Below, piece after piece: positions 1-64,000 of a stretch of DNA of 64,000 nucleotides (positions are counted from its first letter, which is position 1; each line of letters opens with the position of its first letter). Below the pieces are notes generated by a model that made no database searches, had not been told where the DNA came from, and saw nothing but the letters and a program-made list of their open reading frames with translations. The stretch lies in contig CAXXSX010000002.1 in the NCBI GenBank assembly GCA_963677165.2, forward strand, positions 421,988 to 485,987. Direction: 5' to 3'. Source of the stretch: Victivallales bacterium (lineage in GTDB: Bacteria; Verrucomicrobiota; Lentisphaeria; Victivallales; SZUA-371). A program made the position numbers and the translations under genes.

Positions 1-463
1 TCGGTTTCATCCGGTTGAGATCGTTAATGAAACGGTCGCTGATTGGTTTGGTATAATGACTCAGGCGGCTTTGGCTGATTCCAAGGGCGTGGATTAAAAG
101 ATTTTCCTGCTTGTAAATCATTTTAGCGAGGTTGCCGAGTTGCTTGGTTCCGAAGGGGGCGGCTTCTACGTGAATGTGAATTCCAGCGTTTCTATGTGGT
201 TTTGCTCCGGCTTGGCGTAAAGCTCTTACTACTTCCTGCAGAGTTTCAATATCGTTGTATTTCAGTATCGGGCTTACTACTTCGGCATGCGTTCCCGGGA
301 GGCTGCCGTCGTAAGCTGCTTTCCAAACTCTGCCGTCCGGCGCCGTTACTGTGGTATTGCTCAGTCTGCCGCCGATTACGCTTTTAATGGCTCTGGCTGC
401 TGTTGTTCTTGAAATTCCTACGGTTTCAATTTCAATTCCGAATTTTAAATCTTTCATATTCAT
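1..463 (-). CDS. Amidoligase-family protein (Amidoligase_2 / glutamine-synthetase-like COOH-NH2 ligase), N-terminal 154 aa only. The gene runs off the window.
   Basis: My own translation of the minus strand from the ATG at 463-461: MNMKDLKFGIEIETVGISRTTAARAIKSVIGG...DGSLPGTHAEVVSPILKY...AGIHIHVEA. The FGIEIE, E(V)VSP and GIHIH motifs are typical of the family. An AAGGAG RBS lies at 473-478 (reverse complement). Confidence 0.6.
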   Translation of the reverse strand, partial: MNMKDLKFGIEIETVGISRTTAARAIKSVIGGRLSNTTVTAPDGRVWKAAYDGSLPGTHAEVVSPILKYNDIETLQEVVRALRQAGAKPHRNAGIHIHVEAAPFGTKQLGNLAKMIYKQENLLIHALGISQSRLSHYTKPISDRFINDLNRMKP

Positions 464-1847: not shown

Positions 1848-3608
1848 CTAGGCGGAGAAAGCCCATTCGCATTCTTCGTCATCATCTTCCAGTAATACAA
1901 AATCCTCATTGATCAGGGCATGCATGATCGCCCATGCGGCGTCAGCGTGGCCGGTTTTGTCGGAGCGGTTTGCCACATACGTAATGCCGCCGCCTCCGGT
2001 TACCGCGCGATGGATCTGCAGGAACCCGGCAGCGATATCGCTCCAGTTTGTATCCCACTCGATACGCTGATCACCGATGACCTGTTGAGCCTTCAGGACC
2101 AGTTTGGTTTTCTTTTCCTGACTGTAGAAAATACCTTCCGCAGCCGGGAAGAAGCGTTCCACCATTTCAAACACTCCGTCTCCAGGTCCTGTGCGGTCAA
2201 TGCCGATGTATTCAACATCATACTTGGCTACCAGGTCTTTGATCGTTGCCGCCTGGAACTGCCAGGCGGTATTCTTCATGTCGATTTTTTCGATTACCCG
2301 GAATTTACCGCGGACTCCTTTCGGTGCGGTCAGTACCACAATACAGGCTCCGTCTCTGGAACGGCTCGGATCATAACCGATCCACACTTTTCCTTTGTAC
2401 GGTTTTTCGGCTTCCGGCTTAAAGTCTTTCCATTCGGAAATATCAGCCAGGCATTTCTCCAGTTCAGAGAATTTGAATACCGATGCCGAATCGTCAATGA
2501 AGTAGCACATGAACAGTTGCCGGAATTCATCCTCGGAATATTCCACTTTCAACTGTTCGATGTTAAACAGGTCACAGCCTTCGCGTTCAGCGTCTTCAAT
2601 AGTGATGATCCGGCGCCATTGCAGATCCTCGCAGCGGATTCCTTTTTTTCGCAGTTCCTTGCGTTCCGGGAAAAGGATTACAGCCTTGTTTGCGCGTTTT
2701 TTTCGTTCGTTATATTCATCGCCTGACCACATTGGATACGCTTCATGAGATTTTGCGGAAGGCGTCGAAAAGAAAGTTTTTCGCCATTTCTTCTGGCTGG
2801 CCATTGCAGTGGCCACTTTCTTAAGTGTGGAAAATTTCGGTATCCAAAAGTATTCGTCAATGTAAACATGGCCATGGTAACTCTGAGCCGTGGCCGAGTT
2901 GGTACTCAAGAAGTAAAGTGTAGCTTTTCCTTTCGGAGTGATCAGCTCTATTTTGTCCTTTCCGGTCAGCTCCACTCCATACCAGTCCAGGGCAAAGAAT
3001 TTAATGTATTCGCGGAACACATCACTCTGGGCCCGTGATGCGGAAAGGAAGATCTGATTGTCTCCGGTAAGCAACGCATTCGTAAAAGCTTCCCGGGCGA
3101 AGTACCAGGTCATGCCGATCTGTCGACTCTTGAGAATGTTCCGGATCCGCTCGTCAATGTGTTCCCAGCAGTCGATCTGATATCCGAACAGGCCGTCGAA
3201 AAATTTCTGCATCAGATCCTTCTCGTCAATTTCCGAGAAATCATTTTTAGCCGGCTTCCGGCCACGGCGGCGCCGTCCATCTCCGGAGGGCTCTCCAGAA
3301 GCCACACTCTCTTCTTTTGCTTTCAGGCTGGCATAAAGTTTCTCAAGCCGAATCACGTTACTGATCAGGCTGTCGAGTTCCTTTATCTCGAGCTCGGTTT
3401 TATTTTCACGTTCAGCCAGGAGGCGCACACGCTTTTTGATGGTATAAAGTGTGTCTTCCTTGTTGAGTGATTTGTCCCAGCCGTCTTTTTTGATCCAGTG
3501 ATAGAGTGTGCGTCGTTCGATGCCCAGCTGCTGTTCTATCTCCGGAACTTTATTTCCAGCCAGGAACAAGCCTTTTGCCTTATCTCTCTGTTCGTCGGTA
3601 TACTTCAA
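1848..3608 (-). CDS. Terminase large (ATPase) subunit, P2 gpP-like
   Basis: 586 aa with an N-terminal HTH-like segment (RRTLYHWIKKDGW), then an ATPase and nuclease body of P2 gpP type. TTG start with a GGGGAG RBS. It is divergent from gpO, as in P2. Confidence 0.9.
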   Translation of the reverse strand: MKYTDEQRDKAKGLFLAGNKVPEIEQQLGIERRTLYHWIKKDGWDKSLNKEDTLYTIKKRVRLLAERENKTELEIKELDSLISNVIRLEKLYASLKAKEESVASGEPSGDGRRRRGRKPAKNDFSEIDEKDLMQKFFDGLFGYQIDCWEHIDERIRNILKSRQIGMTWYFAREAFTNALLTGDNQIFLSASRAQSDVFREYIKFFALDWYGVELTGKDKIELITPKGKATLYFLSTNSATAQSYHGHVYIDEYFWIPKFSTLKKVATAMASQKKWRKTFFSTPSAKSHEAYPMWSGDEYNERKKRANKAVILFPERKELRKKGIRCEDLQWRRIITIEDAEREGCDLFNIEQLKVEYSEDEFRQLFMCYFIDDSASVFKFSELEKCLADISEWKDFKPEAEKPYKGKVWIGYDPSRSRDGACIVVLTAPKGVRGKFRVIEKIDMKNTAWQFQAATIKDLVAKYDVEYIGIDRTGPGDGVFEMVERFFPAAEGIFYSQEKKTKLVLKAQQVIGDQRIEWDTNWSDIAAGFLQIHRAVTGGGGITYVANRSDKTGHADAAWAIMHALINEDFVLLEDDDEECEWAFSA

Positions 3609-5788: not shown

Positions 5789-6574
5789 ATGATCAGTCCG
5801 GCATGGAAACATCGGCAGCGTGTTCAGGAAAAGCGTGCTGCAGCTGAAGCGGAAAAATCACTGAAAGCTCAGGAACAGGAAACCATTGATAAGATGGCTT
5901 CTAAAAATGGCGAGTTTACTCTTCTGCTGCAGTCCATTGAAAACGACTGCAAACGGATCAGTGAATTGCCAAAAGGCACTGCCAGAACCGACCTGAAGAA
6001 AGAAATTCTGCCAACCTATACTTCTGTTTGCGATGCTTACATCGCTGGGGAAGAAGAATACGAAAACCGCGCCTTGACTCAGGTAATGATCTGGCTGTTT
6101 GACGTTGGTGATATCGACAAGGCTCTGGAGTATGCGGCTGTCGCAATCAAGCAGATTCAGCCGCTTCCTGAACGCTTCACTCGCGATGTCAAAACTTACG
6201 TTGCAGACGCGTTCCTGGAATGGGTTGCCCTGCAGATCGATGAGGACGGATCTGTTGAACCGTATTTCACTTCAATGCTGAATGATGTCATTGAATGGGC
6301 TGTTCATGATGACATCAAGCTGAAATATGTGCGTCAGGCGGCAAAACTGGCCAATGCGGCTGGAGAACTGGACACCGCTTTGGAATACTGCAATAAGGCG
6401 GAAGAGATCGATGCTTCAAAAGCAAAAGTCAAGACCCTTAAGAAGGAACTTGTAAAGGCTATTGCGGCTCGTGATGAAGCTGCTGCAGCAGAAGCCGCTA
6501 AACCGCAGGAAGGTACCGATACTGAAAAATCCGGTACCGGAGAAGACAACACGGAAACCGAAGCAAAGAAATAA
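5789..6574 (+). CDS. Terminase small (endonuclease) subunit, P2 gpM-like
   Basis: The N-terminus MISPAWKHRQRV resembles gpM MTSPAQRHMMRV. It has a charged Ala-rich C-terminus and conserved synteny. Confidence 0.85.
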   Translation: MISPAWKHRQRVQEKRAAAEAEKSLKAQEQETIDKMASKNGEFTLLLQSIENDCKRISELPKGTARTDLKKEILPTYTSVCDAYIAGEEEYENRALTQVMIWLFDVGDIDKALEYAAVAIKQIQPLPERFTRDVKTYVADAFLEWVALQIDEDGSVEPYFTSMLNDVIEWAVHDDIKLKYVRQAAKLANAAGELDTALEYCNKAEEIDASKAKVKTLKKELVKAIAARDEAAAAEAAKPQEGTDTEKSGTGEDNTETEAKK

Positions 6575-14659: not shown

Positions 14660-15195
14660 GCACTGAAACCCGTGACAGAATAAGCCTGAAATTCTGGCAG
14701 AATTCCGGTCAATTGACTCTGATCGGAGAAGTGGCCGACATTTTTTACGATAAATACCAGGCTCTGCTTGAAGATCTGACCGGTCAGGTTGACGCTGAAA
14801 CGGCTCCAATAAAAATGGTGGAGCTTCTTGGCTGGGAACGTGATATCGAACGTTTTCCAGGGGAGTCAGATGAACTCTTTCGGTTACGGGTAAAATATGC
14901 TCTGGCCAATGCACGTGACGCTGGCAGTAAAAGAGGCTTTGAAAAGATATGGGCACGTCTCGGACTGGGAGAGATTACACAGACCGAACGGTTCGATGAA
15001 GAAAACTGGGATGTTATCAATCTGGAGATTGATGAAACTGTGTTCGGTCAATATATGGAGTTGCTGGATGTGATGATCCGGCAATATGGCAGAACCTGCA
15101 GGCGCTATGAATTTGAGTCCGTCACTGAAGGAAAAGAAGGCTTCATACCATTTAATTTTAATTGTGAATATTTTAATACCAAGGCAGGACTATGA
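14656..15195 (+). CDS. Tail protein I-like (P2 gpI family)
   Basis: ELLGWERDIERFPGESDELFRLRV...GSKRGFEKIWARLGLG parallels gpI LLPWLAWAFSVDRWDEKWPEATKR...GTIGAIRRVVEPLGY. Its start overlaps the gpJ stop. Confidence 0.65.
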   Translation: MSTETRDRISLKFWQNSGQLTLIGEVADIFYDKYQALLEDLTGQVDAETAPIKMVELLGWERDIERFPGESDELFRLRVKYALANARDAGSKRGFEKIWARLGLGEITQTERFDEENWDVINLEIDETVFGQYMELLDVMIRQYGRTCRRYEFESVTEGKEGFIPFNFNCEYFNTKAGL

Positions 15196-16190
15196 GCGAA
15201 GAAAATATCAACCTTGAAGACAACTTTTTCACTTTCGGGGATCCGGAACCCGTCGAAAAAGAACACTTACTAGACTATCTGAATGTGTTTGCCGATATTG
15301 GCGGCGAATATTACCTCCCGCCGATTGATCTCTGCGGATTATCAATGATGCGGAGAGCCAATGGTCATCATGGCAGTTGTATTATTCTTCGCTCTAACAC
15401 AACGGCTAATGCTTATGTTTCCGGTCCGCTTCCGGTCCTGGAGCTGTCTTCTGCAGTAACCGACAAGCTGACATTTGGAAATGCTTATTTTCAGATACTC
15501 AGAAACTTGTTTGGACAGCCGACAGGCTTGGAGCATGTTCCTGCGTTGAATATGCGTGTCCGGACAAAAGGTCGTGGATATCGGTTACTGAAACCAAACG
15601 GAGAATATACTGACTTTGAGCCGGATGATATTATTCATGTGAAAGAATATGATACTCAGCAACAGATTTATGGCATTCCAGATTGGATCGGAGGTTTACA
15701 ATCTGCATTATTAAACCAGGACGCTACACTCTTTCGCAGGAAATATTTTGTAAACGGTGCACACCTTGGTTACATCCTTTATACATCCGATCCTAAGATG
15801 GATCCCAAGTTGGTAAAAGCCCTTCAACAGAAAGTTCGGGAAGGAAAAGGCGTCGGAAACTTCAAAAGTCTTCATGTTCATATTCCGAAAGGTGAAGAAA
15901 AAGCCTTCCAGATTATTCCGATTGGTGATATCTCGCAGAAAGATGAATTTAAGAACATAAAAAATATCTCTGCAGCTGATGTTCGCGAGGCACACAGGGT
16001 TCCTCCAGCGCTGATGGGAGTGGTTCCAGAAGGAGCCGCCAGCCTTGGAGATCCGGAGAAAGTCAAAGGGGTATATGAGCAAATAGAAGTTCAGTCAATG
16101 GCACGGTCCTTTGAGATTGTAAATAGAAAGTTACCGAAAAGGCTGCATCTAAAATTTATAGACTTTAAGACTGAAAAAAAGGAGGATTGA
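15192..16190 (+). CDS. Portal protein, P2 gpQ-like (PBSX-type)
   Basis: FTFGDPEPV..., ATLFRRKYFVNGAHLGYILY and GNFKSLHVHIP match gpQ FTFGEPVPV, ATLFRRKYYENGAHAGYIMY and GNFKNLFLYSP as I recall the P2 sequence. Confidence 0.85.
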   Translation: MSEENINLEDNFFTFGDPEPVEKEHLLDYLNVFADIGGEYYLPPIDLCGLSMMRRANGHHGSCIILRSNTTANAYVSGPLPVLELSSAVTDKLTFGNAYFQILRNLFGQPTGLEHVPALNMRVRTKGRGYRLLKPNGEYTDFEPDDIIHVKEYDTQQQIYGIPDWIGGLQSALLNQDATLFRRKYFVNGAHLGYILYTSDPKMDPKLVKALQQKVREGKGVGNFKSLHVHIPKGEEKAFQIIPIGDISQKDEFKNIKNISAADVREAHRVPPALMGVVPEGAASLGDPEKVKGVYEQIEVQSMARSFEIVNRKLPKRLHLKFIDFKTEKKED

Positions 16191-21014: not shown

Positions 21015-21518
21015 GTGATTATATCCGGAAATGGTTTAGAATTAACCGTCGAGTCGATTGGCAAAAACGTCAAGGTTGAAGCTTCTGCGGAATTTGATCG
21101 GAAAGACTTGTCCGGGCAAAATAGTTCCAGTGAAGTCTCGGCTGCCGGCAACAAGCCGAAACGCATTAGAGTTTCCATGATGGTCGAGAAAAAGAAAGCT
21201 GATAATATTACAACGCTTTTAAAAATGGCCGAGGCATTCGATTCTGACGGAAATCCAATCATATATACTATTTCAAGCAAGATTTCAAGAGTAATGCAGA
21301 TCCGACAGGCTATTTTCGATGGCGATGTCCGTGTCCGGGAATCGGAAGGATTATTAAGCTTTGATGTACACTTCGAACTCAAGGAAATGAGTTCTCCGGC
21401 AGAGAAAAAAGAAGAAAGAGAACGCAGCAAAGCAAGCGAAAAAGTTGAAACTGCCGACGGAGAAGTTCAAGTTGGCAGCGCTAATCATGAGAAAGTGGTC
21501 GAGGCTGCCTCAACATGA
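21015..21518 (+). CDS. Tail protein, gpU-like
   Basis: 167 aa, GTG start. The pattern ...RIRVSMMVEKK...LLKMAEAFDSDGNPIIYTI...SFDVHFELKE resembles the gpU family. It precedes hub-like and spike-like genes. Confidence 0.45.
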   Translation: MIISGNGLELTVESIGKNVKVEASAEFDRKDLSGQNSSSEVSAAGNKPKRIRVSMMVEKKKADNITTLLKMAEAFDSDGNPIIYTISSKISRVMQIRQAIFDGDVRVRESEGLLSFDVHFELKEMSSPAEKKEERERSKASEKVETADGEVQVGSANHEKVVEAAST

Positions 21519-22204
21519 AAATTGATAAGATTCTAAAAAATGATTCCGGCATCCTGAAGATCGTCAGCGAAAGTATTGTCCTAGAACAAGACAATGCCGG
21601 TCGTGCTATTTTTGCGGTACAGTCAGAAGATGCGCTTTCCGGAATGGTTTATCTCAGCCTGGCACTGAATAAAGAATACAAGCGCTATCTTACCGGTTAC
21701 ATTGAGTCAAGCCTGCAGGTTGATAGCAAACAGCAACGTTTAGTTGTACGTGAACCGGCAGCGGTACTGGCAAAACGCTGGACGATTTCAAAACGCAACA
21801 CAAATGCGGTCGAGATCCTGGAAGCATTAAACTCTGCGACTGGTTGTGCTTTCAGTATGGGCTCCGGGAATTGGAGTTCTACTTCAATTCCACACTTCAT
21901 TAATATCGGTACCGGCTATGAAGCAATTAAAAATTTAGGCCGTGAACTATGTATAGATGATTTTACCTGGTTAAGTCAGCCAAACGGCACAATATATGTC
22001 GGACCACTGTCGAAAGCAGATATATATCAAAATATTATAGGAGTACCAGCTGATTTTTTCTTTAATCTTTCCGCCTCCGGAGCAGATTGTCCGATTGTCC
22101 CGGGCTTTCGTCCAGGGAAAAGGATCCGCATCGGCAACGGCGAGATCCTGACGATTGACAGCGTAACAGTCTCTGGAACAAACATGAGGATAAACTGGCT
22201 ATGA
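21515..22204 (+). CDS. Baseplate hub protein, short gpD/Mu gp44-like
   Basis: 229 aa, between the gpU-like and gpV-like genes, with overlapping starts and stops. The call rests mainly on position. Confidence 0.4.
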   Translation: MKIDKILKNDSGILKIVSESIVLEQDNAGRAIFAVQSEDALSGMVYLSLALNKEYKRYLTGYIESSLQVDSKQQRLVVREPAAVLAKRWTISKRNTNAVEILEALNSATGCAFSMGSGNWSSTSIPHFINIGTGYEAIKNLGRELCIDDFTWLSQPNGTIYVGPLSKADIYQNIIGVPADFFFNLSASGADCPIVPGFRPGKRIRIGNGEILTIDSVTVSGTNMRINWL

Positions 22205-22965
22205 AAAGCATGATCAAAAAAATTGTTACTAGGCTTTTCCCTGAATTAAACAGCAAAACACACTTACCGCATCTGGGCGTTGTAATCTCCGTTCCGGATC
22301 CTCCAATATCCGGAGAGCAACACACACACGAACGTCCATACTATGCGGTTGATGTCAGGCTGTTAAATTCAGCGGAAGAAATTGATGAGGATATGCCCTT
22401 ATTACGTGACATTCCGGTAGCGATGACAGGATCTGCTCCGCTTCGCGGTTTTGCCGCTCTTCCCCAGCCCGGGACAATTGTTGAAGTGGCTTTTGCCTTT
22501 GGCATGCAATCAAAGCCGTTTATCCGATCGGTACTGCCCTGGAAAATGAAACTGCCGGCAATTGATGCAGAATCCCAACGCTGGCAACAGACCGCAACCA
22601 GCTATCAGGAAGTCGACGCAAACGGCAACTGGAACCGGATCACTGATCAGACCATCAGCGATACCGCGGATATCAACTGTAATCGGACGGCAAAACAGAA
22701 AATCAATGATACAGCTGCTGTGACGAATCAAACATCCAGCACGGAGCATACTTTATTATCACCTCAGATCTACATCGGCAATGAATCGGATAACACTCTG
22801 AAGCTGGACAGCGACTTCATGAACGCCGTGATCAGTGCCTTTAATACTCTGGCCAGCCACACCCATCCTGATGTGGGAACAATTTCACAGGGCAGTGCGG
22901 TATCAAGTCAGGCGACAGCAATAACAGCGTTAAAGACAAAACTTGACGCTATAACCAAAACCTAA
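22201..22965 (+). CDS. Baseplate spike / assembly protein V-like
   Basis: The N-terminal OB-fold pattern (GVVISV...YYAVDVRLL...PQPGTIVEVAFAFG..KPFI) is typical of gpV/gp45/gp5-type spikes. Confidence 0.65.
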   Translation: MKSMIKKIVTRLFPELNSKTHLPHLGVVISVPDPPISGEQHTHERPYYAVDVRLLNSAEEIDEDMPLLRDIPVAMTGSAPLRGFAALPQPGTIVEVAFAFGMQSKPFIRSVLPWKMKLPAIDAESQRWQQTATSYQEVDANGNWNRITDQTISDTADINCNRTAKQKINDTAAVTNQTSSTEHTLLSPQIYIGNESDNTLKLDSDFMNAVISAFNTLASHTHPDVGTISQGSAVSSQATAITALKTKLDAITKT

Positions 22966-23781: not shown

Positions 23782-25109
23782 AGTATGGAAGTGTCTGCAG
23801 CGGAGTAGAAGCAGCCACTTTAGCCTGGGAAACATTGGGATGGAAAGCTTCATTTTTCAGCGAAATTGAAGCTTTTCCCAGTGCGGTCTTGGAGCAAAGA
23901 TGGCCGGAGGTACCGAATCTTGGAGATTTCACAAAAATAGAAAATGATAATTATAATGGAAAAATCGACTTACTTACAGGAGGAACCCCTTGTCAAGCCT
24001 TCAGCATTGCTGGAGCTGGCAGAGGAATTGAAGATCAGCGTGGACAACTTTCCCTCGAGTTTGCAAAGCTTGCTTTTCGATCTAAAGCAAGGTGGATTGT
24101 GTGGGAAAACGTCCCCGGCGTACTATCAAGCAACAAAGGACAGGATTTTGCCGCTTTCCTATCTTTGCTCTGCGGATGGAATGTCAAAGTGCCAAGGATC
24201 CACACCAAACAGAACGGTGAAAAGGTCAGAAAATGGCGAAAAAGCGGAATCATTACACCAGCTCCGGGAGGATTCGGACTGGCATGGCGAACTATTGACG
24301 CTCAATTCGTCAGAGTGGACGGATATAACCGGGCTGTACCTCAGCGACGAAGGCGTCTGTTCGTTGTTGGATATATTGGAGACTGGATCCGTCCCGCAAC
24401 GGTATTATTTGACAAAGGAAGCCTGTCAGGGGGTTCTGCACCGGAGCGAAAAACGAGGCAAAGTTTTACCCGAACCGCTAAAGTCAGCGCTTCAGGCCGT
24501 AGTCGATCAGAAGTGATCTGCATGGCTCATGGTCAGGCAAATGCTGAAGTATGTGAGAACCATGCTTCCACACTCAACTGCAACCATGAAGCACCGATAG
24601 TTTATGAAAATCATCCTGCCGGCTCGAGAGTTCGCCCTTCCGAAGACGTATGTCAAACCCTTAACGCACGAATGGGGACTGGAGGCGGAAACCTACCGTT
24701 CGTTCAATGCTTCACGCAAAACGATGCCGCACACGATGCTGTTGATCATATTGCTCCGACAATGAGATGTGGAGGAACACAGGCAGTATCAATTGCCGGG
24801 AATATAATCAATCGGGCAGTACAACATGGAGGGAATGGTTCAGGCTTCAGTCCAGGAGTGTCTTTCTCTCTGACTACGGCTGACCGTCATGCAGTTTCAT
24901 TATATGGAGAGGTCAGGCGAATGACTCCTCTCGAGTGTGAGAGGCTGATGGGCTTTCCAGACAACCACACCAGAATCAAATGGCGTGGAAAGCCTGAAGA
25001 AGATTGCCCGATCGGACACAGATACAAAGCGTGTGGAAACAGCCAGTGTGTGAATGTTATGCGCTGGATAGGAAAAAGAATCGATAAAATTGATAAATTA
25101 ACAAAGTGA
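23778..25109 (+). CDS. dcm: Cytosine-5 DNA methyltransferase, orphan
   Basis: From the ATG at 23778 (ATGA overlap with dam): GSVCSGVEA (motif I variant), GGTPCQAFSIAG (PCQ motif IV), WENVPG (motif VI), and QRRRRLFVVG. Confidence 0.85.
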   Translation: MKYGSVCSGVEAATLAWETLGWKASFFSEIEAFPSAVLEQRWPEVPNLGDFTKIENDNYNGKIDLLTGGTPCQAFSIAGAGRGIEDQRGQLSLEFAKLAFRSKARWIVWENVPGVLSSNKGQDFAAFLSLLCGWNVKVPRIHTKQNGEKVRKWRKSGIITPAPGGFGLAWRTIDAQFVRVDGYNRAVPQRRRRLFVVGYIGDWIRPATVLFDKGSLSGGSAPERKTRQSFTRTAKVSASGRSRSEVICMAHGQANAEVCENHASTLNCNHEAPIVYENHPAGSRVRPSEDVCQTLNARMGTGGGNLPFVQCFTQNDAAHDAVDHIAPTMRCGGTQAVSIAGNIINRAVQHGGNGSGFSPGVSFSLTTADRHAVSLYGEVRRMTPLECERLMGFPDNHTRIKWRGKPEEDCPIGHRYKACGNSQCVNVMRWIGKRIDKIDKLTK

Positions 25110-25117
25110 AGTAAACT

Positions 25118-25167
25118 AAAAAAAGTTGATGCCATCAGGAGAACGCTCAAATCTTCCTGATGACATC
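25118..25167 (-). terminator. Rho-independent terminator oriented for minus-strand transcripts
   Basis: On the minus strand: GATGTCATCAGGA-N14-TCCTGATGGCATC (13 bp, one mismatch), then AAC and TTTTTTT. Confidence 0.6.
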
Positions 25168-25525
25168 CTAGATATATCAGAGAAGATCGAGACGGAAGGT
25201 CAAGAGCCGTTCGCTGGCCAACACCACTTGGTACCAGCTATCCGTCCGATCTTCAGACCGGACTCAGCACCTAAGGCTGGTAACCTCATTCAATGGTGGA
25301 CGCGCTCTTGACACGACGCAGATAATCTACACTCAAAATAAAACGGTTCAAGCAGAGCACCTAAAATACGGCTTAAGCCGTGAACCTCAAAAAGCCTCGA
25401 ACCCCACGTAACCTCCTGCGATTGTGCAGTACGGCCCCTACAGGCGCACCTAACATACGGCTCAAGCCGTAAGAGCCGCCCCAAAACATCTGACAGAAAA
25501 AATTTACTCGCCCCCGCCTCCTTTT
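25168..25525 (-). other. ORF-poor, hairpin- and repeat-rich segment. Candidates are a structured ncRNA, a cos packaging site, or an att arm.
   Basis: A 114-nt extended hairpin is closed by GTCAAGAGC (25199-25207) and GCTCTTGAC (25304-25312). Two ACGGCTYAAGCCGT hairpins lie at 25368-25381 and 25457-25470. A GC island CTCGCCCCCGCCTCC (25507-25521) sits between A/T runs. Only weak TTG-start ORFs are present. Confidence 0.35.
25267..25453. repeat. Three direct copies of GCACCTAA spaced 90 and 89 bp apart
   Basis: Copies lie at 25267-25274, 25357-25364 and 25446-25453. Copies 2 and 3 extend to GCACCTAAnATACGGCTyAAGCCGTrA. Related G(T/G)AACCTC motifs also recur nearby. Confidence 0.6.
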
Positions 25526-25701
25526 TTTATGCAAAAATGTTAATTTGCGAAACCGGATTATGCAGGATCTAACCAGAAATTAATTTTCACAAAGTGAAAG
25601 CAATGAAAAAATGAAGTATTCAAGAAAAGCGGCTCACATACATTTTCACATACAAATAGATCACTCAGAGGAGTCCTAAAGGAAAATTTTGAGGGAGAAA
25701 G

Positions 25702-25791
25702 TGGCGGAGGGGGTGGGATTCGAACCCACGGAGGCGTTAACCTCGGCGGTTTTCAAGACCGCTGCCTTAAACCAGACTCGACCACCCCTCC
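25702..25791 (-). tRNA. tRNA-Ser (anticodon UGA)
   Basis: Folded by hand. Acceptor GGAGGGG/CCCCTCC, anticodon arm GCGGT-CTTGAAA-ACCGC, long variable arm, T arm GTGGG-TTCGAAT-CCCAC, encoded CCA. Confidence 0.9.
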
Positions 25792-25823
25792 GGGGAATGA
25801 TCTAACAATCATCTTTGAGCTGC

Positions 25824-25853
25824 ATAATATGACACCATAATAACGTTTGTCAA
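25824..25853 (-). promoter_or_regulatory. Sigma70-like promoter for tRNA-Ser(UGA)
   Basis: On the minus strand: TTGACA (25853-25848), 18-nt spacer, TATTAT (25829-25824). This is about 30 nt upstream of the tRNA 5' end. Confidence 0.5.
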
Positions 25854-26008
25854 GCAGAAAAACAAAAAATCCATAGATTGAGTCGTTTTGAGATCAAAAT
25901 GACTCTGTTTGGATTATAGTAGTGCAAGACTTGCCAAGCCCGTACTCGGCTGATGAATGATTAAATATCCAAGTAATATTACGCCGCTGGTGCGGGTAAG
26001 TCAGCTTC

Positions 26009-26201
26009 GCCGAAACTCGGCCTACCGTCTCCTATCCCAAACAAGCTAAAGAGTCTTGCGAAATGAGACGTAATAGGTAGGGCGCGCTCTCCGCAGCGCG
26101 CCGTTTTCCATAATTTTGTGCTCAGGCACAAAATTGCGGACGGTTACGGAGAACCGTCCCTACCCAATAAACTGCATTTCGCACGAGTCTCAAACAAGCT
26201 A
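26009..26201. repeat. REP/REPIN-like cluster: three GTAG-headed hairpins, two forming an inverted doublet around a central hairpin, flanked by an 11-bp direct repeat
   Basis: GTAG+GGCGCGCT-CTCCGC-AGCGCGCC (26077-26102, plus strand). GTAG+GGACGGTT-CTCCGT-AACCGTCC (26163-26138, minus strand). GTAG+GCCGA-GTT-TCGGC (26025-26009, minus strand). Central hairpin AATTTTGTGC-TCAG-GCACAAAATT (26112-26135). CAAACAAGCTA occurs at 26038-26048 and 26191-26201. Confidence 0.6.
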
Positions 26202-26338
26202 TTATAAAAAAATAAAGTAACGCATTAGCAAGAAAGCAGCATAAATTCTCACTTCCTTGCCAAACCTGATTGAAAAAGCTAAAATAGCATTTATCATTAT
26301 TGACTGAACCTAAAATAAACTTATAGGAAAAATTGACA

Positions 26339-27298
26339 ATGATACGAAAAGTTAAAAGAAATAGCTTCCAAGCATATTTTAATCAAACTCTATATTCTTC
26401 TATTATCACGTTAGTACTCTGTCTTTTCACCAGTGCATCTTGCGCCGAAAATAATAATCTTTACTCAAAAATAGAAAAAGACGTCCATTACGAATACAGA
26501 AAAGACAGTTCAAGAAACGTTTTCGACTTGTATTTTCCCGCCAAAGGGAAAAAACCTTATCCGACCCATATCTATATTCATGGCGGAGGCTGGGTTGGAG
26601 GCTCCAAAGGCATCGGCGGAAACGTGAAAACAGTTTTCCGAAAACTGGCGAAGGCCGGTTTTTTAGGAATTGCGGTTGAATACCGTTTGGCCAACAGAAA
26701 AACGGGACCCTATCTCCGCACATGCGTTGTCGATTGCATGGATGCCTTACGCTATATATTCTCCCATGCCAAAGAATATAACATTGACACCAATAATGTA
26801 TTTGTCTGGGGAGGTTCTGCCGGAGGACAGCTTTCGCTGCTTTGTGCTACCGCGCCATCGTCAACCTTTCCCGGAGGTGTTCAGGAGCCCCAAAGCGGCA
26901 TTCATTTCAAGGGTGTTGTGGCCTGGTATCCACCCACTGATATGCTTCACTATGAAGAAATTTCCGTCAAATATAATAAAAAACTGCGTGATCTCAGCAA
27001 ACGCATCGGACGAACTGTCGAAAACGACCCGGTCGCATTTATCGAAGTCAGTCCTCTTGCTCACCTGACCCAAAATGATCCGGTTATGCGGATATTTCAT
27101 GGAGACCACGACACGGTGGTTAACATTCAACATTCCATTCGCTTTGCAGACAAAGCCAAAAAGCTAGGCGTACCCTGTGAGTTGATCGTAATCAAGAATG
27201 CCAATCACGGTTTCAGCGGCAAAAAGATTGATCCCGGCATTGACTTCATTACCAATGCTACGGCCAAATTCTTTATCGATCTTGCCTCAAAAAAATAG
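26339..27298 (+). CDS. Secreted alpha/beta-hydrolase esterase (HGGG / GxSxG type)
   Basis: Signal peptide (ITLVLCLFTSASCAEN), HGGGWVGGS oxyanion motif, GGSAGG nucleophile elbow, and later HGDHD and NANHGF. The ATG at 26339 is preferred to the TTG at 26333. Confidence 0.75.
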   Translation: MIRKVKRNSFQAYFNQTLYSSIITLVLCLFTSASCAENNNLYSKIEKDVHYEYRKDSSRNVFDLYFPAKGKKPYPTHIYIHGGGWVGGSKGIGGNVKTVFRKLAKAGFLGIAVEYRLANRKTGPYLRTCVVDCMDALRYIFSHAKEYNIDTNNVFVWGGSAGGQLSLLCATAPSSTFPGGVQEPQSGIHFKGVVAWYPPTDMLHYEEISVKYNKKLRDLSKRIGRTVENDPVAFIEVSPLAHLTQNDPVMRIFHGDHDTVVNIQHSIRFADKAKKLGVPCELIVIKNANHGFSGKKIDPGIDFITNATAKFFIDLASKK

Positions 27299-63356: not shown

Positions 63357-64000
63357 ATGAGCAAAACAATTCTGGTTACAGGAGGCGGGGGATTTATTGG
63401 TTCTCATCTCTGTGAACGCCTGTTAAACGATGGACACGATGTTATATGTCTTGATAACTTTTTTACCGGCTCAAAAGATAACATACGCCATCTTTTAAGC
63501 GATCCTGATTTTGAGTTGGTCCGACATGATATCTGTCAGCCTTATTATGCGGAAGTCGACATGGTTTTTAATATGGCATGTCCGGCTTCTCCAGTCCACT
63601 ACCAATACAACCCGGTTCATACGACTAAAACTTGCGTCATGGGGTCCATTAACATGCTGGGACTTGCCAAACGCAGACAAGCTGTAATTTTGCAGGCGTC
63701 TACTTCTGAAGTTTATGGCGATCCCAATATTCATCCCCAAACTGAAGCTTACTGGGGCAACGTAAATTGCATTGGTAAACGCAGTTGTTATGATGAAGGA
63801 AAACGTTGTGCTGAAACATTGTTTTTTGATTATTACCGCGAACACAATGTTAAAATTAAAGTTGTTAGAATTTTCAATACCTACGGACCACGCATGCTTC
63901 CAAATGACGGCAGAGTTGTAAGTAATTTCATTGTCCAGGCTCTGAAAAATGAAGATATTACCATTTATGGAGAGGGACAGCAAACTCGTAGCTTCTGTTA
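63357..64000 (+). CDS. UDP-glucuronate decarboxylase (UDP-xylose synthase-like SDR), 3'-truncated by the window
   Basis: My own translation: [23 protein letters not shown]..., [18 protein letters not shown] (the YxxxK motif), IFNTYGPRM. These are highly characteristic of UXS-type extended SDRs. Confidence 0.85.

Follow-up and report, generated by a model that had tools for sequence, protein, structure and literature searches.

A 64,000-nucleotide stretch of genomic DNA from a Victivallales bacterium (contig CAXXSX010000002.1; hereafter the window) carries an HP1/P2-like prophage whose late region, mostly on the plus strand, occupies positions 900–25109. The 592 nt that follow, at 25110–25701, form, with a probability that we put at about 70%, the right-hand non-coding end of this integrated prophage, a modular assembly of a novel RNA gene, a probable cohesive-end site (cos), and an arm of the attachment site (att). 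Alignment with related prophages resolves this end, read on the minus strand from the adjacent tRNA, into five modules: a repeat arm, a G/C island, zero to two small hairpins, a promoter, and a region of about 200 nt with a strong hairpin. This modular order is supported by homology. A preliminary description of the same DNA, made from the sequence without database searches, had offered a structured RNA, a cos site, and an att arm as competing readings of the region. They are not alternatives, as each fits a different subregion. All the features that it listed are present where it placed them; those clearly non-random are the terminator hairpin, the stem formed by GTCAAGAGC and GCTCTTGAC, and two 14-nt palindromes.

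Homologous non-coding ends were identified in 11 distinct relatives, all HP1/P2-like prophages of Victivallaceae/Lentisphaerota-type hosts. The first, L005, was recovered by a profile search of loci fetched via the methylase genes; it has the same two methylase genes upstream and a tRNA-Leu gene beside it. Homologues of the spike protein encoded near the prophage end, together with their contigs, provided L165, L166, L168, L169, L170/171, L301/302, L303/304/306, L305, and L307/308, and a scan of metagenomes for the island pattern added L234, L274, L230, L209, L211, and L247. The names carried by the spike-protein homologues point to Victivallaceae/Lentisphaerota hosts and by extension suggest such a host for the prophage in the window. 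Spike and methylase genes precede the homologous end in L005, L165, L166, L168, L169, L170, L301, L303, L305, and L307, the gene order in relatives being HP1_ORF34, an unknown gene, the spike gene, one or more methylase genes, and then 550–900 nt of non-coding DNA. Prophages of this lineage, among them L165, L230, L170, L307, L301, and L005, adjoin tRNA genes of no fewer than five kinds (Ser-TGA, Leu-CAG, Arg-TCT, Tyr-GTA, and Val-TAC), and some adjoin none. The non-coding stretch thus moves with the phage, independently of the host locus. Depending on the prophage, TTTTTAnnCTCAAAAAT stands directly behind the CCA of tRNA-Ser, -Leu, -Arg, or -Tyr. Because it starts there whichever the tRNA, 25110–25701 is phage DNA up to the tRNA. 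An edge left of 25170, which the preliminary description had considered, is ruled out by phage-type sequence beginning at the tRNA 3' end beside five tRNAs.

On comparative evidence, the minus strand of 25118–25321 is a previously undescribed structured RNA gene of about 195–204 nt, with a predicted start at about 25315–25319 and a predicted end in the U-run at 25118–25124. A promoter of the sigma-70 type, TTGnnn-16..18-TAnnnT, stands at a fixed distance from the RNA in all 11 relatives. In the window, it occupies 25324–25351 on the minus strand, with a −35 box TTGAAC (25351–25346), a 16-nt spacer, and a −10 box TAGATT (25329–25324). At the other end, an intrinsic terminator hairpin (25128–25167, minus strand) is formed by arms at 25128–25140 and 25155–25167 that are 92% complementary; it precedes the U-run, an A-run on the plus strand, and abuts the stop codon (25107–25109) of a C5-cytosine methylase gene that is convergent to the RNA gene. 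The minus-strand terminator proposed earlier at 25118–25167 was thus correctly recognized, and equivalent 3' hairpins of −21 to −33 kcal/mol exist in the relatives, followed by a U-run in 9 of 11. No open reading frame (ORF) in the RNA region is kept across relatives. An independent small RNA gene is expected to have a conserved promoter, a conserved intrinsic terminator, a covarying structure, and no conserved ORF, and all of these are found here. The RNA would be transcribed from its own promoter toward the methylase gene and end at the terminator.

The covariance model R1 matched 25120–25321 with 157.7 bits, as a single copy in the window. The model search covered the loci already fetched, about 1.46 Mb, in which matches above 110 bits were confined to these prophage ends. 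The RNA gene is kept in every sampled member of the lineage but one. In the Rfam 15 scan suggested by the preliminary description, the tRNA alone reached the gathering score, and at E values up to 10 (24900–26300) only noise overlapping the tRNA appeared; with no covariance-model match, GOLLD, ROOL, and the other Rfam 15 families are ruled out as the identity of the RNA. Two ribozyme-like motifs, a hammerhead-like CUGAAGA in the window and a group II domain V-like GAGCCGUAU in the small hairpins, were dismissed as chance, being not conserved or without an Rfam match.

The core fold (25199–25312, minus strand) is closed by helix P1, which pairs 25304–25312 with 25199–25207 (GCTCTTGAC/GTCAAGAGC). 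Within it, also on the minus strand, lie helix P2a (25295–25298 with 25268–25271), hairpin P2 (25272–25288; loop UUACCAG), local hairpin P3 (25257–25264 with 25244–25251), and hairpin P4 (25213–25238), whose loop GUGGUG is at 25222–25227. Segment B (GAAGAUCGGACGG, 25242–25254) can in addition pair over 13–15 bp with A' (CCGUCUCGAUCUUC, 25182–25195), a segment situated 3' of P1. Because P1 crosses the B:A' helix, the fold, extending here over 25182–25254, is a pseudoknot. In the proposed body, P1 would close P2a/P2 and P4, and a pseudoknot of 13 bp would anchor B to the sequence immediately 3' of P1. An additional 5' helix (P0), which would rival P1, was rejected as weak (87% vs 80% paired, with 13 of 500 shuffles as high). 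The preliminary description had seen the GTCAAGAGC/GCTCTTGAC stem and the inner GTCCG/CGGAC pairing, and both have counterparts in the comparison: the former is a helix in which all nine pairs covary, and the latter has a local hairpin as its equivalent in 8 of 11 relatives. The pairing of GGTACCAGC with GCTGGTAACC did not survive, as these bases belong to the separate covarying hairpins P4 and P2.

Plain MAFFT and covariance-model alignments shift the 3' strand of P1 by two columns in five sequences. Because of this misregistration, we used a segment-wise hand alignment with N padding (A8), which was checked against the sequences and accepted unchanged by the aligner. Over its 48 pairs, 96.0% of cells are paired, against 76.0 ± 1.2 in shuffles; changes on both sides occur in 33 of 48 pairs, against 16.7 ± 2.2; and the covariation score is 0.586 against 0.200, and no shuffle out of 500 reached these values. 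When the partners are slid by one to three columns, pairing falls to 27–50%. Compensatory changes affect 9/9 pairs of P1 (100% of cells paired), 5/5 of P2 (96.4%), 6/10 of P4 (98.0%), 2/4 of P2a (95.5%), and 11/15 of the B:A' helix (90.6%). From an unfitted MAFFT alignment of the 11 distinct sequences, RNAalifold predicted P2a, P2, P4, and the B:A' helix, with 25 of 34 pairs compensatory. This result and the variety of P1 sequences argue that the covariation signal is not an artefact, and the covariation among homologs anticipated in the preliminary description is present.

Segment B forms the local hairpin P3 in 8 of 11 sequences (−8.8 to −14.4 kcal/mol), to the exclusion of the pseudoknot, whose duplex is available in all 11 (−12.7 to −24.9 kcal/mol). 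As B forms either the one or the other, the RNA has two mutually exclusive states, which may reflect a functional switch or a folding intermediate. A variant was observed in L005 (7216–7452, minus strand), where an additional hairpin of about 40 nt (CCCCCUGUAUGGGGGG core) replaces P3; P3 and the pseudoknot need not compete there, because the extra hairpin leaves segment B free. The loops of P2 (L2, YACCAR) and P4 (L4, GUGGUG) do not vary and complement each other over 5 bp, 100% paired, so that they could form a kissing contact.

Other explanations of the conserved fold were weighed. The RNA could be a cis-acting riboswitch or attenuator in which an aptamer-like body governs the terminator and thereby controls antisense transcription into the methylase and late genes, which we regard as improbable. 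Riboswitch-controlled antisense RNAs are known, segment B pairs with either A (as P3) or A', and four sequences (the window, L165, L166, and L168) offer a potential antiterminator, in which the 3' portion of A' binds the 5' terminator arm, as in the pairings AUCUUCUCUGAU with AUCAGGAAGAU (window) and GGUCUUCUC with GAGAAGACC (L166). However, only one of the 11 sequences has an antiterminator as its minimum-energy fold, the antiterminator is absent from L169, L170, L301, L303, L305, and L307, no known aptamer was matched in Rfam, and no gene lies downstream of the RNA on the minus strand, the next gene being convergent. Riboswitches and attenuators combine a conserved terminator/antiterminator with a regulated gene on the same strand; because the antiterminator is not general and there is no such gene downstream, we do not call the RNA a riboswitch. 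The conserved pairing might also act on the plus strand, in the 3' untranslated region of the late or methylase mRNA, or in the DNA itself, as a cruciform or a terminase-binding cosB. Both strands fold better than shuffles, and folding energy fails to tell them apart (z −3.07 for the minus strand and −3.67 for the plus strand; z −2.8 and −3.5 for the 592-nt region), and the late operon has no plus-strand terminator before 25110–25701. Against such a role, 27 G-U cells become A-C mismatches on the plus strand, compared with 7 the other way. This excess, with the orientation of the promoter and of the U-run terminator, assigns the RNA to the minus strand. Repeats that bind a protein should moreover keep their sequence, whereas the stems here change while pairing is kept; we consider a plus-strand or DNA function very improbable. 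Hardly better is the prospect of one non-coding RNA of 350–600 nt, similar to GOLLD or ROOL, that would run from the island through the small hairpins to the core fold. On the minus strand, the 592 nt as a whole are indeed more stably folded than shuffles (z −2.83), and the tRNA gene, whose promoter is directed into the region, has no strong terminator behind it. Nevertheless, all 11 relatives have a conserved promoter directly ahead of the core fold, the stretch from island to promoter ranges from 74 to 250 nt, the hairpins are wholly lost in L170 and L307, L209 has the island without the RNA, and no large-RNA family of Rfam was matched, even at E values up to 10. The preliminary description was therefore right in predicting a structured RNA directed toward the terminator, which covaries and has its own promoter, and wrong in its length (about 200 nt instead of 350–400) and in its suggested kinship with GOLLD and ROOL.

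For the short RNA gene read on the minus strand, we infer a function in trans as a folded, partner-binding RNA. It shares with the prophage small RNAs (sRNAs) DicF, the enterohaemorrhagic Escherichia coli (EHEC) anti-sRNAs, and the CI/C4-type RNAs of P4 the status of a stand-alone, moron-like gene that sits at the end of a prophage and is bounded by a sigma-70-type promoter and an intrinsic terminator. Those are mostly short base-pairing RNAs, whereas the RNA of the window is about 200 nt long, multi-helix, and pseudoknotted, with invariant loops, which brings it nearer to a ribozyme, a riboswitch, or the RNA of a ribonucleoprotein (RNP). Constraint of this degree characterizes ribozymes, riboswitch aptamers, and RNP scaffolds; base-pairing sRNAs of the ordinary kind do not typically show it. 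To our knowledge, the P2 family has no comparable RNA on record. This RNA, which combines four covarying helices with a long pseudoknot and two invariant complementary loops, has its own promoter and terminator, and is missing from Rfam, is the interesting part of the prophage end. Its comparative support is exceptionally strong, and it is directly testable, as its ends, helices, and candidate contacts are predicted to the nucleotide.

A more specific proposal, which we regard as speculative and quite unlikely, is that the RNA represents a new functional class of phage RNA that works, through its invariant loops, with the universal tRNA 3' end or, alternatively, multimerizes during packaging at cos, like the pRNA of phi29. 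Complementary loops are the principle of pRNA ring formation, and UGGN:NCCA pairing occurs in T-box RNAs. The invariant ACCA and UGGU loops of the window RNA are complementary likewise; this is a resemblance only. In the tRNA version, GUGGUG would hold NCCA-3' as T-box and RNase P RNAs do, with the YACCAR loop mimicking that end, and the switch between P3 and the pseudoknot would signal or sequester tRNA that is uncharged or damaged, perhaps as a decoy against a tRNA-targeting defence. In the packaging version, the complementary loops would let copies of the RNA multimerize and act at the nearby cos; as a further likeness to phi29 pRNA, the RNA gene and the candidate packaging site are about 190 bp apart. 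Neither phi29 pRNA nor T-box shows any model similarity to the RNA, the element has a P2-type terminase and portal and not a phi29-type motor, and the specifier/antiterminator architecture of T-box RNAs is not conserved in the family.

The second module is an invariant G/C island at 25506–25524, the candidate cos core, which reads AAAGGAGGCGGGGGCGAGT on the minus strand, and has A-run and T-run flanks. The preliminary description had noticed this island at 25507–25521 and suggested that its GAGGCGGGG is also the core of the cohesive end of P2. The GenBank record bears this out: the P2 end GGCGAGGCGGGGAAAGCAC includes GAGGCGGGG, 9 nt of the island being identical to P2 cosL. Relative to the P2-family core GGCG(A/T)GGCGGGG, the island has AAGG in place of the GGCG upstream. 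Comparisons of 7 and of 12 sequences left AAAGGAGGCGGGGGnGAGT plus the T-run as the only invariant stretch of the ends, and the island is invariant in 12 distinct relatives whatever the neighbouring sequence. It is kept in L209 (269–1376), only some 125 nt away from the N6-methylase stop codon, in an end that has no RNA gene; conservation of the island is therefore independent of the RNA. The core GGCGGGG is common to the island, the phiCTX cosL AGGCGTGGCGGGGGGACGACT, and the Smp131 cohesive end GGCGTGGCGGGGAGACGAG (PMC3931495). The position fits as well. In the records of HP1 and K139, the last baseplate gene is followed by about 190 bp, cos, 250–510 bp, attP with an opposite-strand tRNA sequence, and int, and the island of the window stands where cos stands in these phages. 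As the element also encodes P2-type terminase subunits and a portal, the island is probably cos, at which a P2-type terminase would make its staggered cut.

Comparison with experimentally studied phages shows both a common plan and departures from it. HP1 and K139 (Peduoviridae) have the last baseplate genes (orf34/orf35 in HP1), a short non-coding stretch, cos, a few hundred bp, and attP, with int on the far side, and the window encodes homologues of HP1_ORF34 and HP1 Orf24. In the window, two inserted methylase genes and the RNA gene separate the baseplate genes from the candidate cos, the island is nearer to P2-type ends than to the TCCTTCCCC of HP1, and the hosts are of Lentisphaerota type, not Gammaproteobacteria. 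The island shares its G-rich GGCGGGG core with the P2/P4 end GGCGAGGCGGGGAAAGCAC, phiCTX, and Smp131, with the 9 identical nt in P2; its flanks differ from the P2-family ends, AAGGA replacing GGCGA upstream and GYGAGT replacing AAAGCAC downstream. The candidate cos of the window also adjoins attP and not the portal gene as in P2. This cos/att layout is ordinary for an HP1-like phage; it nonetheless fixes the prophage boundary and predicts the virion ends in a lineage from a poorly studied phylum.

Between the island and the RNA promoter, the window has two small palindromic hairpins, ACGGCTTAAGCCGT at 25368–25381, followed on the minus strand by AUUUUAGG, and ACGGCTCAAGCCGT at 25457–25470. Both 14-nt palindromes are unique to the locus, with none expected in 64 kb. 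The relatives have zero to two copies, with an altered sequence that is still palindromic in L169, L301, and L005. The preliminary description had taken three repeats of GCACCTAA for cosB-like terminase-binding sites or for arm sites. The repeats are there, exactly three in the 64 kb (25267, 25357, and 25446; about 1.3 expected), without being conserved in the relatives: the copy at 25267 lies inside the RNA and the other two belong to the small hairpins. Since relatives that keep the island carry zero, one, or two hairpins, these are not cosB. Their U-rich 3' flanks on the minus strand suggest terminators, and they probably stop read-through from the tRNA or int side. The recurrence of GKAACCTC motifs, also reported, is attributable to chance (3 matches, 2.5 expected).

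The remaining 170 bp or so, an A/T-rich segment at 25530–25701 between island and tRNA, form the att arm. The earlier suggestion of an att arm holds for this segment and not for the GCACCTAA repeats. Two direct repeats of TCACATACA (25634–25642 and 25646–25654; minus strand TGTATGTGA) with a 12-nt period are candidate arm-type integrase sites. The arrangement GTATGTAA-N4-GTATGTAA, with the consensus GTATGTRA-N4-GTATGTRA, recurs in the window, L168, L005, L170, and L211, and other repeats take the same position in L169 (GTAGCGAAA, three copies) and in L165/L230. Arm repeats thus change with lineage among prophages beside different tRNAs. A block conserved in the alignment, TTCACAAAGTGAAA at 25586–25599 (minus strand TTTCACTTTGTGAA), may be a site for a host factor or for Int/Xis. 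At 25687–25701, the phage-side sequence abutting the tRNA 3' end (CTTTCTCCCTCAAAA on the minus strand) marks the att-core boundary. The repeats with a 12-nt period next to a tRNA, their replacement between lineages, and the precedent of HP1 and K139 fit an HP1-type attP, in which phage sequence starts at the tRNA 3' end and direct repeats lie in an A/T-rich arm, as they do here; from these sequence features, we infer that the repeats are Int sites. The integration target is tRNA-Ser(TGA) (25702–25791, minus strand), whose 3' end faces the phage. From there, the order on the minus strand would be the att core within the tRNA 3' end, the repeat arm, the island, the two hairpins, and the RNA gene.

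Several observations weigh against this interpretation of 25110–25701. The RNA gene is predicted from comparative evidence, and the alignment behind the main pair count, A8, was fitted to the structure by hand. As both loops are invariant, the L2:L4 contact shows no covariation. For the candidate cos, no public contig ends at the island, and a search of metagenomes for the island pattern gave at least 120 matches, about six of them family members, none placed at a contig end so as to mark cos. A second copy of GAGGCGGGG occurs at 63382–63390, in a coding GGGGFIGSH Rossmann motif, so GAGGCGGGG alone is weak evidence for cos, and the cohesive end of HP1 itself differs in sequence from the island. 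No repeat of 12 nt or more of the tRNA 3' end was found in the window, and the other prophage end, with attL and the integrase, lies outside it. Finally, L211 and L247 have the arm and island next to unrelated DNA, as described below.

The island could accordingly be, not cos, but a site for a conserved phage protein (a regulator, a Xis/Cox-like protein, or a replication factor) or another signal, with cos elsewhere. That no contig terminates there speaks for this possibility, as do the shortness of the P2 match, whose 9 nt could arise in any G-rich island, and the P2 record, in which cos adjoins the portal gene, located here at 15192–16190. Set against them are the status of the island as the sole invariant block in otherwise diverged ends, a GGCGGGG core common to three experimentally defined P2-family cohesive ends, and a location identical to that of cos in HP1 and K139, classical phages with the same layout. 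Nor does the Shine-Dalgarno-like AAGGAGG of the island announce a gene, as no conserved start codon follows, and a small ORF behind it was rejected on this ground. On balance, we hold a role other than cos to be unlikely, if less so than the alternatives considered for the RNA. The cos assignment agrees with the suggestion of the preliminary description through the invariance of the island, its similarity to P2-family ends, and its position as in HP1 and K139; the island is a candidate cos.

In L211 (about 1560–1960) and L247 (1–600), an arm of the L170 type and the island run, some 15 nt beyond the island, into unrelated DNA that contains a small ORF and encodes a HigB-like toxin; the RNA gene is absent. 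The arm/island block of L247 is inverted and lies on the 5' side of tRNA-Gly/tRNA-Tyr. These joins could reflect a satellite carrying the att and cos of a helper, a remnant, or a chimeric assembly.

The rest of the window places this end in a P2-type late region. On the minus strand, an Ogr/Delta zinc finger gene (1523–1780) is followed by a large terminase gene of the gpP type (1848–3608; Terminase_6N/6C and Terminase_5, with an N-terminal match to a gpP-like family). The small terminase gene, of the gpM type (5789–6574; Phage_term_smal), belongs to a region that encodes, on the plus strand, a gpO scaffold, a P2-type capsid protein, gpL, gpR, HP1 Orf24, a tape measure protein, and baseplate proteins J and I. 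The portal gene (PF04860, Phage_portal; plus strand) precedes a tail fibre gene and then a DUF6765 gene, also on the plus strand. It thus stands between the gpI-like baseplate gene and the tail fibre gene, a placement repeated in one relative, whereas the portal gene of P2 and HP1 adjoins the terminase genes. Downstream on the same strand are HP1_ORF34 (21015–21518), the spike-like protein gene (22201–22965), an N6-adenine methylase gene, and the C5-cytosine methylase gene, which ends at 25109. Left of the terminase, within 2–1780, there are also a helix-turn-helix antitoxin-like gene (900–1253), a Gp49/HigB-like gene (647–916), and an amidoligase ORF. The amidoligase ORF runs past the window start, and the prophage extends beyond it.

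Other searches gave little. A blastn search of the region against phages and plasmids found no match, the methylase protein had no exact copy on record, and a search of genome contigs with the host esterase returned matches of at most 34% identity. DNA patterns drawn from the hairpin repeat, the P4 block, and the RNA loops yielded, in viral contigs, nothing, only the L005 contig, or 63 chance matches that the covariance model rejected. The metagenome contig L001 (201–1539) is identical to 25000–26400 of the window; its C5 methylase is present as two ORFs (365 aa and 73 aa) and that of the window as one. On the host side of tRNA-Ser lie genes for an esterase, an N-acetylglucosamine (GlcNAc) 2-epimerase, and a LacI-type regulator. 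The tRNA gene has a promoter TTGACA-18-TATTAT at 25853–25824 (minus strand), within about 550 nt of non-coding DNA upstream of it (25792–26338) that contain two facing terminator-like hairpins, at 26081–26102 on the plus strand and 26159–26138 on the minus strand.

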